Of a stretch of 64,000 nucleotides of DNA, positions 47,473 through 55,103 are shown piece after piece. The notes under the pieces were generated by a model. That model ran no database searches. It saw only the letters and a list, made by a program, of their open reading frames with translations, and was not told the DNA's origin. This stretch comes from an uncultured Actinomycetota bacterium (GTDB taxonomy: Bacteria > Actinomycetota > Thermoleophilia > Solirubrobacterales > Solirubrobacteraceae), in assembly GCA_963721515.1 (NCBI GenBank), contig CAVRKJ010000010.1:606672-670671 (forward strand), read 5' to 3'. Positions within the stretch are counted from its first letter, which is position 1, and each line of letters begins with the position of its first letter. The position numbers were made by a program, and so were the translations under genes.

Positions 47473-48915
47473 TCAGTCGCCCAGCTCGGCGCGCCGCCGC
47501 ACCACGAACTCGCGCAGCGCCTCGTCGACGGCGCCGTCGACGGGAGGCTGCTCGTAGTCCTCGAGGGCCTGGCGCCAGATCTCGCCGGCGCGGGCGGTCG
47601 TGTCGCGCGCGCCGCGCTTGGTCCAGCGGTCGAAGTTCTCCGTCGAGGACAGCATCGGGCGGTAGAAGCACTCGCGGAAGCGCTCCAGGGTGTGCGCGGC
47701 GCCCAGGAAGTGCCCGCCGGCGCCGACCTCCAGATGGGCGTCGAAGGCCAGCGAGGCCTCGTCGATCTCCAGCGGGGTGAACTCGTGGCGCAGCTCGCGC
47801 AGCAGTTCGACGTCGACGATGAACTTCTCGTAGCAGGACACCAGCCCGCCCTCCAGCCAGCCCGCGGAGTGCATCACGAAATTGGTCCCGGCCAAGAAGG
47901 TGGGCAGCAGCGTCATCAGTGACTCGTAGGCCGCTTGGGCGTCGACGGTCTGGGACGCGTTGAGCGCGCCGCCGCCGCGCCACGGGAGCCCGAAGTGGCG
48001 CGCGATCTGGCCGGTGCAGAGCACCCCGATCCCGGACTCGGGGGTGCCGAACGACGGCGAGCCCGACTGCATGTCGGTGTTGGACAGAAACGATCCGAAT
48101 ACCACCGGCGCGCCGGGGCGGATCGTCTGCGCCAGCGCGATGCCGGCGAGGGCCTCGGCCATCTGCTGGACGAGCGTGGCCGGGAGCGAGACGGGCGACA
48201 TCGCGCCCATCAGCAGGAACGGAGTGATCACGACGGCCTGGTTGGCCTTCACGTACTCCACCATCGCCGACAGCATCCGGTCGTCGTAGCGCAGCGGGCT
48301 GTTGACGTTGATGAGCGAGATCGACACCGGGGCGCGCTCGATCGCCTCGCGGCCGCCGAACAGGATCTCGCCCATGGCGATGGTGTCGGCGGCGTTAGGG
48401 CCCGAGGTCACCGAGCCCATGTAAGGCTTGTCGGACAGGGTCTGCAGGGCATAGACCATGTCGAGATGCCGGCTGTCCAGCGGCCGGTCCTCGGGCTCGC
48501 AGATGGTGCCGCCGGGCGAATCGAGCTGGGGATAGAACTGCGACAGGCGCACGAGGTTCTCGAAGTCGGCCATCTTGGCATCGCGGCGCACGTCGCCCTC
48601 GCGGATGAAGGGGCACCCATACACCGGCGCGAACACCATGTTGTTGCCGCCGATGTGGGCGGTGTTGGCGGGGTTGCGCGCCTGAAGCTCGAACTCCCTG
48701 GGGGCCTTGGCCACCTGCTCGAGGATCCACTCGGGGTCAAACCGCACGCGGTTCTCGTCCTCCACAATCTGACCGGCGCCGCGGAGCACCTCCACCGCCT
48801 CGGGCAGCAGGAACTCGATCCCCAGCTCGCTCACGATGCGCCGCCAGCCTCGATCGAGCGTGGCCATGGCCTCCTCGCTGAGGATCTCGTAGCGGGGCAT
48901 GTCGTTGACGAACAT
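47473..48915 (-). CDS. MttB-superfamily (trimethylamine methyltransferase family) quaternary-amine:corrinoid methyltransferase, non-pyrrolysine type
   Basis: 480 aa from ATG 48915 (SD GAGAGGAAG is 7 nt upstream). Full-length family resemblance ('PRYEILSEEAMATLDRGW', 'VNSPLRYD', 'GAMSPVSLPATLVQ', 'MHSAGWLEGGL'). No in-frame TAG. Confidence 0.85.
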   Translation of the reverse strand: MFVNDMPRYEILSEEAMATLDRGWRRIVSELGIEFLLPEAVEVLRGAGQIVEDENRVRFDPEWILEQVAKAPREFELQARNPANTAHIGGNNMVFAPVYGCPFIREGDVRRDAKMADFENLVRLSQFYPQLDSPGGTICEPEDRPLDSRHLDMVYALQTLSDKPYMGSVTSGPNAADTIAMGEILFGGREAIERAPVSISLINVNSPLRYDDRMLSAMVEYVKANQAVVITPFLLMGAMSPVSLPATLVQQMAEALAGIALAQTIRPGAPVVFGSFLSNTDMQSGSPSFGTPESGIGVLCTGQIARHFGLPWRGGGALNASQTVDAQAAYESLMTLLPTFLAGTNFVMHSAGWLEGGLVSCYEKFIVDVELLRELRHEFTPLEIDEASLAFDAHLEVGAGGHFLGAAHTLERFRECFYRPMLSSTENFDRWTKRGARDTTARAGEIWRQALEDYEQPPVDGAVDEALREFVVRRRAELGD

Positions 48916-48976
48916 GGCGGGCTTCCTCTCTGTCTGTCTTCGGCGGGGCGGCCGGGACTGGTGTCTCAACGACCGC

Positions 48977-49004
48977 TTGACTGAGCGGTGTGCGTCCGTA
49001 ATAT
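48977..49004 (+). promoter_or_regulatory. Near-consensus sigma-A-type promoter TTGACT-N16-TAATAT for the iclR-corrinoid operon
   Basis: TTGACT at 48977-82 and TAATAT at 48999-49004. The -35 is embedded in the inverted repeat ACCGCT-N6-AGCGGT (48972-48989). Confidence 0.5.
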
Positions 49005-52630: not shown

Positions 52631-54519
52631 GCGCCGCGGCCCCCAAGCGGCGCGCGCTCGAGCGCGAGGAGGCGGTCGTGGAGACCGACGGCGCCGAGCG
52701 CGTGCGCCTGCGGTTCCTGCCCGACGGCGGCGAGGTCCGCGTCCCGAGCGGAACGCCGATCTTCGACGCCGCCAGCTGGAACGGCATCGCCATCGACTCG
52801 ACCTGCGGCGGTCACGGGACCTGCAAGAAGTGCAAGGTCCGCATCGTCTCGGGCGACGTCCCGCTCTCCAGCGTCGACCCACGGGCGTTCTCCACCGATG
52901 AGCTGCGCCAGGGCTGGCGGCTCGCCTGCCGAGCCAGCGCCCGCGGCGATCTCGTCGTCGAGGTACCGCCGCTGCAGACCCGGCCCAAGGCAGCGCTCGT
53001 CGGCGTCGGCCGGCACGTCATCCTCCGCCCCGCCGTCCAGAAGCGCCACCTCGTGCTCGATGAGCCGACGCTCGAGGATCAGCGGTCTGACCTGCAGCGG
53101 GTCTGCGATGCGCTCGACGATCTCGAGCCCTATGCGTCGCTCGACGTGCTGCGGACGCTCGGCGGCACGCTGCGCCGGTCGCACTTCGACGTCACCGCCG
53201 TGGTGTGCGACGAGGAGCTCATCGACGTCGAGCCCGGCGACACGACCGGCCGGCGGTTCGCCATCGCCTTTGACCTCGGCACGACCACGGTGGTGGCTAC
53301 GCTGCTCGACCTCGAGAGCGGCCAGCCGGCCGCGGTGAGGTCGATGCTCAACCGCCAGCAGCCCTACGGGGCTGACGTCATCACCCGCGTGTCGGCGACG
53401 ATGATGGATGAGCATGCGCTCGGGGCGCTCCAGCAGCGTGCCCACGAGACCTTTGCGGAGCTGACCGGTGAGGTGCTCGCGGACGCCGCCGTCGAGCCGG
53501 ACGAGGTCTATGAGATCGCGGTGTGCGGCAACGTCACCATGATGCAGATTGCGCTCGGGATCGATCCCGAGCCGCTCTCGATGGCGCCGTTCACGGTCGC
53601 GACGCACGAATTCCCGCCCACCCGCGCGTCTGAGTTCGGAGTCACGCTGCACCCGCGGGCATCGGCCTACGTGTTCCCATCGCTCGGCGCCTACGTCGGT
53701 GGCGACATCGTGGCGGGAATGCTCGCCACCGGACTGACCCGCGACCGGCGGCTGCGGCTGTTCATCGACGTTGGGACCAATTCGGAGATCGCGCTCGGCT
53801 CCGTCGACCGGGTGCTCGCCACCGCGGCGCCCGCCGGACCGGCGTTCGAAGCCGCTCAGATCAAGTGCGGCATGCGGGCGGCCGACGGCGCGATCGAAGG
53901 CATCAAGCTGAGCGCCGACGGCCTCGAGCTCGACGTGATCGGTGACACCGAACCGGTCGGCATGTGTGGCTCGGGGCTCGTGGACGCGGTCGCCGAACTC
54001 GTCCACGCCGGTCTGCTGGACCATTCCGGGCGCTTCATCCCCAACGAGGACGCCGCCGACAGGTTCCCCGGGCTGTGCGAGCGGCTGACGAAGATCGGCG
54101 ACGAGCGAGTGTTCGTGCTGCACTGGCGCGGCGACGATCCGGCAGCATCGGTCTACCTCTCCCAGCGCGACGTCCGCGAGCTGCAGTTCGCCAAGGGCTC
54201 GATCGCCACCGGCTGGCACATCCTTCTGCGGGAGATGGGCGTCGAGGCCGCAGACATCTCCCAGGTGCTGCTCGCGGGTAGCTTCGGCGCATATCTCACG
54301 CCGCTGAGCGCGGTGCGGATCGGGCTGGTGCCACGCATCGCGCTCCCCCGGATCGTCTCCGCCGGCAACGTGGCCGGGGAGGGCGCCAAGATCGCCGCCC
54401 TGTCGCTGCGTGAGCGCGCCGAGGCCCAGTCGATCCTGCGCGAGGTCGAGTACGTGGAGCTGTCCGGGCGCGCCGATTTCAACGACCTGTTCATCGACCA
54501 GCTCTCGTTCCCAGGATGA
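52627..54519 (+). CDS. Reductive activator of corrinoid enzymes (RACE; N-terminal [2Fe-2S] ferredoxin + ASKHA/DUF4445 ATPase)
   Basis: 'DSTCGGHGTCKKCKV' plant-type ferredoxin motif, followed by 'AFDLGTTTVV' and 'IDVGTNSEI' ASKHA phosphate motifs. Confidence 0.85.
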   Translation: MSAAAPKRRALEREEAVVETDGAERVRLRFLPDGGEVRVPSGTPIFDAASWNGIAIDSTCGGHGTCKKCKVRIVSGDVPLSSVDPRAFSTDELRQGWRLACRASARGDLVVEVPPLQTRPKAALVGVGRHVILRPAVQKRHLVLDEPTLEDQRSDLQRVCDALDDLEPYASLDVLRTLGGTLRRSHFDVTAVVCDEELIDVEPGDTTGRRFAIAFDLGTTTVVATLLDLESGQPAAVRSMLNRQQPYGADVITRVSATMMDEHALGALQQRAHETFAELTGEVLADAAVEPDEVYEIAVCGNVTMMQIALGIDPEPLSMAPFTVATHEFPPTRASEFGVTLHPRASAYVFPSLGAYVGGDIVAGMLATGLTRDRRLRLFIDVGTNSEIALGSVDRVLATAAPAGPAFEAAQIKCGMRAADGAIEGIKLSADGLELDVIGDTEPVGMCGSGLVDAVAELVHAGLLDHSGRFIPNEDAADRFPGLCERLTKIGDERVFVLHWRGDDPAASVYLSQRDVRELQFAKGSIATGWHILLREMGVEAADISQVLLAGSFGAYLTPLSAVRIGLVPRIALPRIVSAGNVAGEGAKIAALSLRERAEAQSILREVEYVELSGRADFNDLFIDQLSFPG

Positions 54520-55103
54520 GCACGCCCCCGCCTACGCGTGCCGCGGTCGTCGCCTGCGGGGCCCTGGCCTTCGACGTGCGCTCCATCGCGCGGCGCCGCG
54601 GCTGGGACGTCGACGTGGTGCCGGTGCCGGCGCTGCTGCACAACCGCCCCGACCAGATCCCCGCGGCGGTGGCCGAGGCGCTGGCCACCCACGACGTGGT
54701 GGCCGTGGCCTACGCTGACTGCGGCACCTACGGGGCGCTGGACGAGCTGCTGGCCGGCACCGGCGTGCAGCGCCTGGCCGGCGATCACTGCTACGACGTC
54801 CTGGGCCGCGACGAGGTGGAATGGGCCCTGGCCGAGGAGCCGGGCACCTACTTCCTCACCGACTTCCTGGCCCGCACGTTCGAGCACACCGTCGTGCGCC
54901 AGCTCGGGCTCGACCGCTGGCCGGAGCTGCGCCACACTTACTTCGCCCACTACACGCGCGTGGTGTGGCTGGCCCAGCGCCCCACGCCGGCCACGCGCCG
55001 CTGCGCGGAGGCCGCAGCGGAGCGCCTGGAGCTGCCGCTGGAGATCCGGCCGGTTGGCAATGCGGGCCTCGAGCGCGGGCTCGAGCGCCTGCTCGCCGCC
55101 TAA
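54516..55103 (+). CDS. DUF1638-family protein
   Basis: 195 aa. 'AVVACGAL...VAYADCGTYGALDE...GDHCYD' matches my recollection of DUF1638 genes seen in corrinoid methyltransferase clusters. ATGA overlap with the activase gene. Confidence 0.65.
   Translation: MSTPPPTRAAVVACGALAFDVRSIARRRGWDVDVVPVPALLHNRPDQIPAAVAEALATHDVVAVAYADCGTYGALDELLAGTGVQRLAGDHCYDVLGRDEVEWALAEEPGTYFLTDFLARTFEHTVVRQLGLDRWPELRHTYFAHYTRVVWLAQRPTPATRRCAEAAAERLELPLEIRPVGNAGLERGLERLLAA

Follow-up and report, generated by a model that had tools for sequence, protein, structure and literature searches.

A probable cobalamin-dependent glycine betaine demethylation module in Solirubrobacteraceae

We analysed a stretch of contig CAVRKJ010000010.1 (64,000 nt, referred to here as the 64-kb window) from an uncultured actinobacterium, and in it a cluster of eight genes at positions 47473–55103 that encodes a methyltransferase of the MttB superfamily and its corrinoid partners. 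The cluster is, in our judgement, likely to be the Solirubrobacteraceae version of the cobalamin-dependent glycine betaine:tetrahydrofolate (THF) methyltransferase MtgBCD, together with its accessory proteins. This is a new host of a known system. What is new is the actinobacterial soil host, the conserved promoter with a putative IclR-box operator, and the lack of a homocysteine module nearby. The original prediction, made from the DNA letters, had placed the cluster in an actinobacterial-type context, and the origin of the contig in the family Solirubrobacteraceae agreed with this.

The first gene, on the minus strand (47473–48915), encoded an mtgB-like, non-pyrrolysine substrate:corrinoid methyltransferase of 480 aa (PF06253, E=3.7e-187). 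It was divergent from a plus-strand operon of seven genes. The operon began with the gene for an IclR-family transcriptional regulator (49034–49825; HTH_IclR and IclR_C). This was followed by genes for an mtgC-like corrinoid (B12-binding) protein (49822–50487; PF02607 and PF02310, with the motif GDVHDIGKN), a MetV-like Cys-rich protein of the methylene-THF reductase (MTHFR) C-terminal domain family (50484–50855; PF12225, E=1.7e-26, with the motif RNGPCGG) and a MetF-type methylene-THF reductase (50842–51783; PF02219). The last three genes encoded an mtgD/mtgA-like pterin-binding methyl-corrinoid:THF methyltransferase (51752–52630; PF00809, and NF005719 with 324 bits against a cut-off of 259), a RACo/RamA-like ATP-dependent reductive activase (52627–54519; Fer2, RACo_linker, Raco_middle and RACo_C_ter) and a DUF1638 protein (54516–55103; PF07796).

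All six junctions in the operon were overlaps, which were, in order, ATGA, GTGA, 14 nt, 32 nt, ATGA and ATGA. Domains were called with Pfam and NCBIfam profiles, and the real reading frames were picked by the G+C content of the third codon position, the G+C content of the window being about 70–75%. The eight genes with their domains and the unbroken run of overlaps were found as the original prediction had described them.

The PF06253 match spanned residues 3–479 of the MttB homologue, which corresponded to profile positions 25–500 of 500. The reading frame was uninterrupted, with no in-frame UAG, and L318 aligned with the pyrrolysine of Methanosarcina barkeri MttB (PDB 7XCL). The equivalog model for pyrrolysine-containing MttB, TIGR02369, gave 264 bits against a cut-off of 525. 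The protein was indeed a non-pyrrolysine member, as had been claimed. It was 47.5% identical to the Sinorhizobium meliloti protein of PDB 4yyc, 43.7% to Desulfitobacterium hafniense MtgB over the full length, and 25.5% to M. barkeri MttB. The MttB/MttC system of M. barkeri has PF06253 and the TIM-barrel type of methyltransferase in common with the window, but in its MttB the positions of the carboxylate-binding Arg and His (see below) are both Tyr.

Characterised non-pyrrolysine MttB proteins had been thought, in the original prediction, to come from strict anaerobes only. This view has been overtaken by work on aerobic bacteria. Ruegeria pomeroyi grows aerobically on glycine betaine by means of MtgB (PF06253), MtgC (B12-binding) and MtgD (pterin-binding), and proteomics of cells grown on glycine betaine showed induction of MetF2, a RamA-like activase and DUF1638 (Mausz et al., PNAS 2025, PMC12478193). 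Knock-outs of mtgC and mtgD failed to use betaine and in addition required methionine, since the two proteins are shared with the homocysteine module MtgE (PMC12478193). In Phaeobacter inhibens, an mtgB1 gbcAB double mutant did not grow on glycine betaine (bioRxiv 10.64898/2025.12.19.695462). The mtg genes are clustered in many marine Proteobacteria and in S. meliloti, where the cluster was named MtgBCDE plus reactivation modules, and 5% of the mtgC reads from the ocean were classified as Actinomycetota (PMC12478193).

The window module was compared with the divergent mttB clusters of S. meliloti and Paracoccus methylovorus. In both clusters mttB is divergent from genes for a B12-binding protein, DUF1638, a MetV-like protein, MetF, a methyl-THF:cobalamin methyltransferase and an ASKHA protein, and the MttB of the S. 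meliloti cluster is the protein of 4yyc. Seven components of the window were 31–57% identical to their counterparts in both clusters. The values were 47–48% for MttB, 44–46% for the corrinoid protein, which carries the DxHxxG motif, 55–57% for the MetV-like protein, in which every Cys motif was kept, 36.5% for MetF, 49–50% for the pterin methyltransferase, 31–32% for the activase and 38–41% for DUF1638. Component by component, this identity indicated the same system in the window, with its genes in another order and one regulator more.

The likeness to the aerobic MtgBCD system (PMC12478193) extended over the seven protein families, the divergent mttB layout of S. meliloti and P. methylovorus, a five-residue signature in the substrate site (YRHWG, see below), and the co-location with genes of dimethylglycine and choline metabolism. 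On the other hand, the host of the window module belongs to a Gram-positive soil lineage (Thermoleophilia, Actinomycetota), and the operon has the IclR gene first and the DUF1638 gene last.

To this comparison we added the related loci of the lineage itself. A scan with the window MttB gave 80 loci, one genome per species, each of about 21 kb (1.49 Mb summed). All came from metagenome-assembled genomes (MAGs) of Solirubrobacterales or unclassified Actinomycetota, with 89–99% identity in MttB, and the proteins nearest to the window MttB were from Solirubrobacteraceae MAGs. L001, the closest locus, aligned collinearly with the window, its nucleotides being about 94% identical. Neighbouring genes were counted by tblastn with 16 window proteins.

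The best-conserved members of the module were MttB and the corrinoid protein, the latter in 76 of the 80 loci. The pterin methyltransferase was found in 70, the activase and DUF1638 in 68 each, and the IclR regulator in 79; MttB, the corrinoid protein and the pterin methyltransferase occurred together in 70 or more. Since the arrangement is kept across 80 species-level genomes, it is not a chance juxtaposition.

The metV and metF genes were less regular, with 57/80 and 55/80 respectively. In 16 loci (L014, L023, L027, L053, L054, L056, L061, L062, L064, L066, L067, L069, L071, L072, L073 and L080) the corrinoid gene was followed directly by that of the pterin methyltransferase, and metV–metF was absent from the operon, a further difference from the aerobic MtgBCD system. 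This suggested that methyl-THF oxidation is carried by a sub-module that can be dispensed with or encoded elsewhere.

Mutagenesis and a structure with bound ligand have established the betaine site of D. hafniense MtgB (Picking et al., JBC 2026, PMC13080624). Y97 and F356 make cation-pi contacts to the trimethylammonium group, and R312 and H348 bind the carboxylate, R312 by a salt bridge and H348 by a hydrogen bond or charge (PMC13080624). Y97, R312 and H348 corresponded to Y99, R313 and H349 in the window protein, and all three were invariant in the 80 orthologues. The Tyr at position 97 was also present in the MttB proteins of S. meliloti and P. methylovorus.

MtpB (proline betaine), MtcB (carnitine), MtyB (gamma-butyrobetaine) and MthB (phosphocholine) of Eubacterium limosum belong to the same superfamily and likewise work in a three-component relay, with a RamQ-type activase. 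By the published description, R312 is common to all of them, whereas the aromatic pair Y97/F356 is not conserved in MtcB, MtpB, MthB and MtyB, and neither is the Tyr at position 97 taken singly (PMC13080624). The window protein has this Arg and keeps Y97.

The second aromatic residue of the D. hafniense site was not kept. At the position of F356 the window protein and all 80 orthologues had Gly (G357), and four residues upstream, at MtgB position 352, they had an invariant Trp (W353). The combination of W352 and Gly356 was common to the S. meliloti and P. methylovorus MttB proteins, so that the five positions 97, 312, 348, 352 and 356 read YRHWG identically in the window protein and in the MtgB proteins of the two alphaproteobacterial clusters.

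We examined this pattern in a family set of 89 sequences, composed of 85 unlabelled representatives of 50%-identity clusters and the window and reference proteins. The references were PDB-derived sequences and plasmid-borne alphaproteobacterial homologues; MtpB, MtcB, MtyB, MthB and the MtgB proteins of R. pomeroyi and P. inhibens were outside the set. An aromatic residue at position 356 was present in 0/34 sequences with W352 and in 32/55 of the others (Fisher p=1.6e-9, uncorrected for phylogeny). This mutual exclusion is consistent with a relocated second residue of the aromatic box.

The genes around the module also pointed to betaine. A choline dehydrogenase gene, betA, was located at 42035–43780 on the minus strand and exceeded the cut-off of the equivalog model (TIGR01810, 804 bits against 732). 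Next to it were an aldehyde dehydrogenase gene (40119–41585, plus strand; PF00171), a candidate betaine-aldehyde dehydrogenase (BADH) whose role is suggested by context, and the gene of an APC-family permease (38337–39923, minus strand; AA_permease_2; TIGR00907, 175 bits), a candidate importer of choline or betaine. The upstream neighbours also included a GntR regulator and a gene for a pyridoxal phosphate-dependent Thr/Ser ammonia-lyase (dehydratase) with an ACT domain (44596–45858, plus strand; TIGR01127, 399 bits against a cut-off of 379), which is a candidate exit from serine to pyruvate. In the 80 loci the GntR regulator was found 69 times; the counts of the outer genes, which were limited by the length of the flanks, were 54 for the aldehyde dehydrogenase, 52 for the permease, 46 for betA, 43 for the dehydratase and 39 for etfD (see below).

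On the other side, convergent with the corrinoid operon, were four tightly coupled genes on the minus strand. The first encoded an 843-aa FAD/folate enzyme of the dimethylglycine oxidase/dehydrogenase family (58749–61280; DAO, FAO_M, GCV_T and GCV_T_C). The start codon of etfB (57984–58748; PF01012) directly abutted the stop codon of this gene, the start of etfA (57109–57984; ETF_alpha and ETF) overlapped the etfB stop codon by 1 nt, and etfA lay 41 bp upstream of a gene (55100–57067) for an EtfD-type membrane Fe-S oxidoreductase that transfers electrons from electron-transfer flavoprotein (ETF) to menaquinone. The EtfD-type protein had two CCG domains, a 4Fe-4S dicluster domain and a membrane N-terminus, and scored 494 bits to Mycobacterium smegmatis EtfD (9ojn).

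The original prediction had put the module between a choline dehydrogenase and an ETF-linked dimethylglycine dehydrogenase. The BetA assignment and the coupling to etfBA and etfD stood. The nature of the second enzyme was less clear-cut, as its best solved relative was the dimethylglycine oxidase of Arthrobacter globiformis (1pj5, 538 bits) versus 299 bits for the human dimethylglycine dehydrogenase. By score the protein was oxidase-like, yet its gene was translationally coupled to etfB–etfA, with etfD after them. Possibly the enzyme belongs to the oxidase clade but passes its electrons to ETF.

We infer glycine betaine as the substrate from this context, from the shared five-position signature and from the fact that the module as a whole is homologous to a system validated by genetics. 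The relay of the original prediction, in which a methyl group passes from glycine betaine to a Co(I)-corrinoid, to THF and then to methylene-THF, was supported by the domains, the synteny, the homology of the clusters and the residues Y97, R312 and H348.

A number of results weighed against this assignment. F356 matters kinetically in D. hafniense MtgB (PMC13080624), and its loss in the window protein would be made good by W353 on the strength of a covariation uncorrected for phylogeny. The nearest representative clusters, 60–63% identical to the window protein, had no Tyr at position 97, and in a neighbour-joining tree of the family, which was rough, carried no support values and is indicative only, the window protein was not grouped with the S. 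meliloti clade but fell into a different subclade. These two results suggested that the specificity positions shift between close relatives in the MttB family. MtcB and MtyB, which are 53% identical, differ in their preferred substrates, so that 44–48% identity to known or presumed MtgB proteins leaves the substrate unfixed.

Some of the partners also scored low. The corrinoid protein reached neither of the two MtgC cut-offs in NCBIfam (MtgC_2, 199 bits against 370), and the aldehyde dehydrogenase was below those of the BADH models at 325–349 bits, no BetB cut-off being reached. There were no cobalamin synthesis or uptake genes in the window, and an Rfam scan of the window gave no match at the gathering threshold, be it to a B12 riboswitch or to any other RNA family. 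As for oxygen, aerobic growth has been described for one cultured Solirubrobacter species, and it is from this single relative, by analogy, that we infer an aerobic lifestyle for the host.

Part of this evidence would suit the same corrinoid relay acting on another substrate, such as proline betaine, carnitine, gamma-butyrobetaine, phosphocholine or another N-methyl compound, with the neighbouring genes as a broader island for methylated amines. The superfamily is plastic, as MtcB and MtyB demonstrate, and R. pomeroyi and its relatives have up to seven paralogues (PMC12478193). The missing F356, the different residues at position 97 in the closest clusters and the placement in the tree apart from the S. 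meliloti and D. hafniense clades point in the same direction. Nevertheless, Y97, R312 and H348 were all kept and the YRHWG signature was that of S. meliloti and P. methylovorus. Betaine-making (betA) and dimethylglycine-consuming genes flanked the module in many genomes, and none of the called genes of the window encoded another betaine demethylase (Rieske GbcAB or BHMT). For phosphocholine in particular, the choline kinase MthK that belongs to the E. limosum route had no counterpart adjacent to the module. We consider a different substrate unlikely.

The region between mttB and iclR provided a further line of evidence, on regulation. A motif scan found one sigma-70-like promoter for the plus-strand operon at 48977–49004 (TTGACT, a 16-nt spacer and TAATAT), which was the sole site of this type in the 8.6 kb from 47000 to 55600. 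Between its -10 element and the iclR start codon was an inverted repeat, TGGAAC-AACA-GTTCCA (49014–49029). A terminator scan gave nothing above background.

Across the 80 loci the mttB–iclR intergenic regions were divergent except for TTGAC, 16–19 nt, a TAATAT-like element, 5–12 nt and TGGAAC-N4-GTT[CT]CA. The repeat occurred exactly once per locus in 79 of the 80 loci (in 1.49 Mb), and once in the 64-kb window, always within the mttB–iclR intergenic region. The composite of promoter and repeat was present in 76 of the 80 loci.

The repeat looks similar to the IclR box of E. coli, TGGAAATNATTTCCA. We interpreted it as probably the operator bound by the IclR regulator of the operon; a repressor would be expected to bind at just such a site, after the -10 element and ahead of iclR. 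The regulator probably controls the divergent mtgB gene as well.

These results can be put together in the following scheme. Choline would be imported and then oxidised to glycine betaine by BetA and the aldehyde dehydrogenase. MtgB would hold glycine betaine with R313 and H349 on the carboxylate and with Y99 and probably W353 on the trimethylammonium group, and would transfer a single methyl to the Co(I) corrinoid carried by MtgC, releasing dimethylglycine. The pterin-binding MtgD/MtgA would then transfer the methyl group to THF, and MetF with its Cys-rich MetV-like partner would convert methyl-THF to methylene-THF, methyl-THF oxidation being the presumed direction of MetF. Corrinoid accidentally oxidised to Co(II) would be re-reduced by the [2Fe-2S]/ASKHA activase at the expense of ATP, with the assistance of DUF1638.

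In the next step, dimethylglycine would be demethylated by the FAD/folate enzyme of the convergent operon, and the electrons would go to EtfBA, EtfD and menaquinone. The use of an actinobacterial EtfD at this step would differ from the aerobic MtgBCD system. One-carbon (C1) units and glycine could leave via serine and the Ser/Thr ammonia-lyase. Control of the operon, and probably also of the divergent mtgB, would be exerted by the IclR regulator through the single conserved repeat just after the -10 element.

The scheme follows the logic of MtgB/MtgC/MtgA in D. hafniense (DSY3156, PDB 2QNE/9YCE) and Methanolobus vulcani, in which a corrinoid protein, a second methyltransferase and an activase driven by ATP likewise take part. 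In the substrate site the window protein has the Y97, R312 and H348 of the D. hafniense enzyme, but Gly in place of F356 and Trp at position 352. D. hafniense and M. vulcani are strict anaerobes, in which the methyl group feeds acetogenesis-like metabolism or methanogenesis, whereas in the window's host, which would be respiring, it is presumably oxidised or assimilated.

The same set of genes could also be seen mainly as a split cobalamin-dependent methionine synthase, with betaine demethylation as a secondary function. The B12-binding protein, the pterin methyltransferase, the RamA-like ferredoxin/DUF4445 activase and DUF1638 are in common with the split enzyme of P. inhibens (Price et al. 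2018, PMC5764234), and MtgC, MtgD, the RamA-like protein and DUF1638 are needed for methionine in P. inhibens and R. pomeroyi. Moreover, MetH is missing from most marine genomes with MtgBCD (PMC12478193).

In S. meliloti, bmt is only 6 kb from the cluster. The window, in contrast, had no MtgE/Bmt module nearby: a homologue of the homocysteine S-methyltransferase Bmt/MtgE was found neither in the window nor in any of the 80 related 21-kb loci, a search that covered the loci rather than whole genomes. The cluster sat among catabolic genes, with which it appeared to be co-regulated, and had a dedicated IclR regulator, while MetF and MetV in the operon suit methyl-THF oxidation. A gene resembling B12-independent methionine synthase (PRK06520 family; the partial sequence scored 142 bits) starts at 63515 and is cut off by the end of the window at 64000; it too speaks against this function. 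We regard a methionine synthase as the main role of the module as very unlikely.

The lack of Bmt/MtgE in the window and the 80 loci made the glycine betaine module look like a dedicated catabolic unit in this lineage. A more specific proposal is that Solirubrobacterales have a purely catabolic MtgBCD module that is uncoupled from methionine synthesis, is governed by its own IclR repressor and operator, and has an aromatic box of Y97 and W352 in place of Y97 and F356. We put this forward tentatively, as possible rather than probable.

The least probable of the alternatives, and hardly credible to us, is that a facultative organism uses the module solely when conditions are anoxic or micro-oxic, which would leave no aerobic corrinoid pathway. 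Oxygen sensitivity of the Co(I) corrinoids and of the Fe-S activase would fit this, as would the origin of most characterised relatives in anaerobes. However, R. pomeroyi and P. inhibens run the homologous system during aerobic growth, the cultured Solirubrobacter species is described as aerobic, and the partners in the window are of respiratory or oxidase type (BetA, the dimethylglycine oxidase-like enzyme, and ETF/EtfD to menaquinone).

The accessory proteins were characterised further. In the activase, PF00111, PF17650, PF17651 and PF14574 were all above their cut-offs, giving an N-terminal [2Fe-2S] domain and the RACo linker, middle and C-terminal ASKHA domains; against the AcsV model it scored 405 bits, with a cut-off of 800. 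A sequence search with the MetV-like protein found no solved structure.

DUF1638 has been genetically tied to corrinoid reactivation in other organisms. A sequence search of the PDB with the DUF1638 protein gave no match. Its AlphaFold2 (AF2) model, with a predicted local distance difference test (pLDDT) score of 93.4, showed alternating strands and helices, and a Foldseek search of the PDB with this model gave nothing at E<=0.001. The weak matches were the PrpR N-terminal domain, which was the best with template-modelling (TM) scores of 0.43–0.45, and two-lobe alpha/beta folds like those of ATCase and LacI. C14, H42, C69 and C92 were kept from Actinomycetota to S. meliloti, and this conservation hints at a metal or redox site.

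Three genes at 45855–47468 separate the dehydratase gene from mttB. They encode a molybdopterin-binding oxidoreductase (PF00174), an FNR-like FAD/NAD reductase and a DUF6510 protein. We considered them as part of the corrinoid system. In many related loci, the gap between the dehydratase gene and the end of mttB is about 100 bp or less, which has no room for them, and the trio is probably an unrelated insertion.

The remaining genes of the window were for peptide transport, histidine utilisation and regulators. A cluster resembling those for histidine utilisation (17568–27794) contained urocanase, two amidohydrolases, an ornithine cyclodeaminase-family gene and three aromatic-amino-acid-lyase paralogues (17568–19397, 24693–26252 and 26244–27794). 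At 10243–10833 was a homologue of the formaldehyde-activating enzyme Fae (PF08714), adjoining genes for a Zn-dependent alcohol dehydrogenase and a member of the enolase superfamily. This group is unusual for an actinobacterium and may have to do with C1 or formaldehyde handling. Directly beside the APC permease was a gene for a putative nucleotidyltransferase with cNMP-binding, CBS and DUF294 domains (36442–38316). On the plus strand at about 32000–34142, the C-terminal part of a long reading frame was SNF2/DEAD-like helicase sequence with the motif GLGKT; it was below the filter for coding by third-position G+C.

Close homologues of the window MttB recur in many metagenome and MAG records, where they are still labelled 'trimethylamine methyltransferase', and the present reading bears on this annotation as well as on the turnover of osmolytes in soil and on the corrinoid demand of soil communities. 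It offers two handles, namely the conserved operator, which is easy to test, and the W352 versus F356 hypothesis for betaine binding in the aerobic-type enzymes. If the latter is true, there would be a second structural solution for the recognition of quaternary amines in the MttB superfamily. If the module is confirmed, aerobic B12-dependent betaine demethylation would be extended from marine and rhizobial Proteobacteria to a widespread order of soil actinobacteria. On the tentative proposal of a purely catabolic module, the Solirubrobacterales, which are abundant in soil, would also be a large unrecognised cobalamin sink in aerobic soils.

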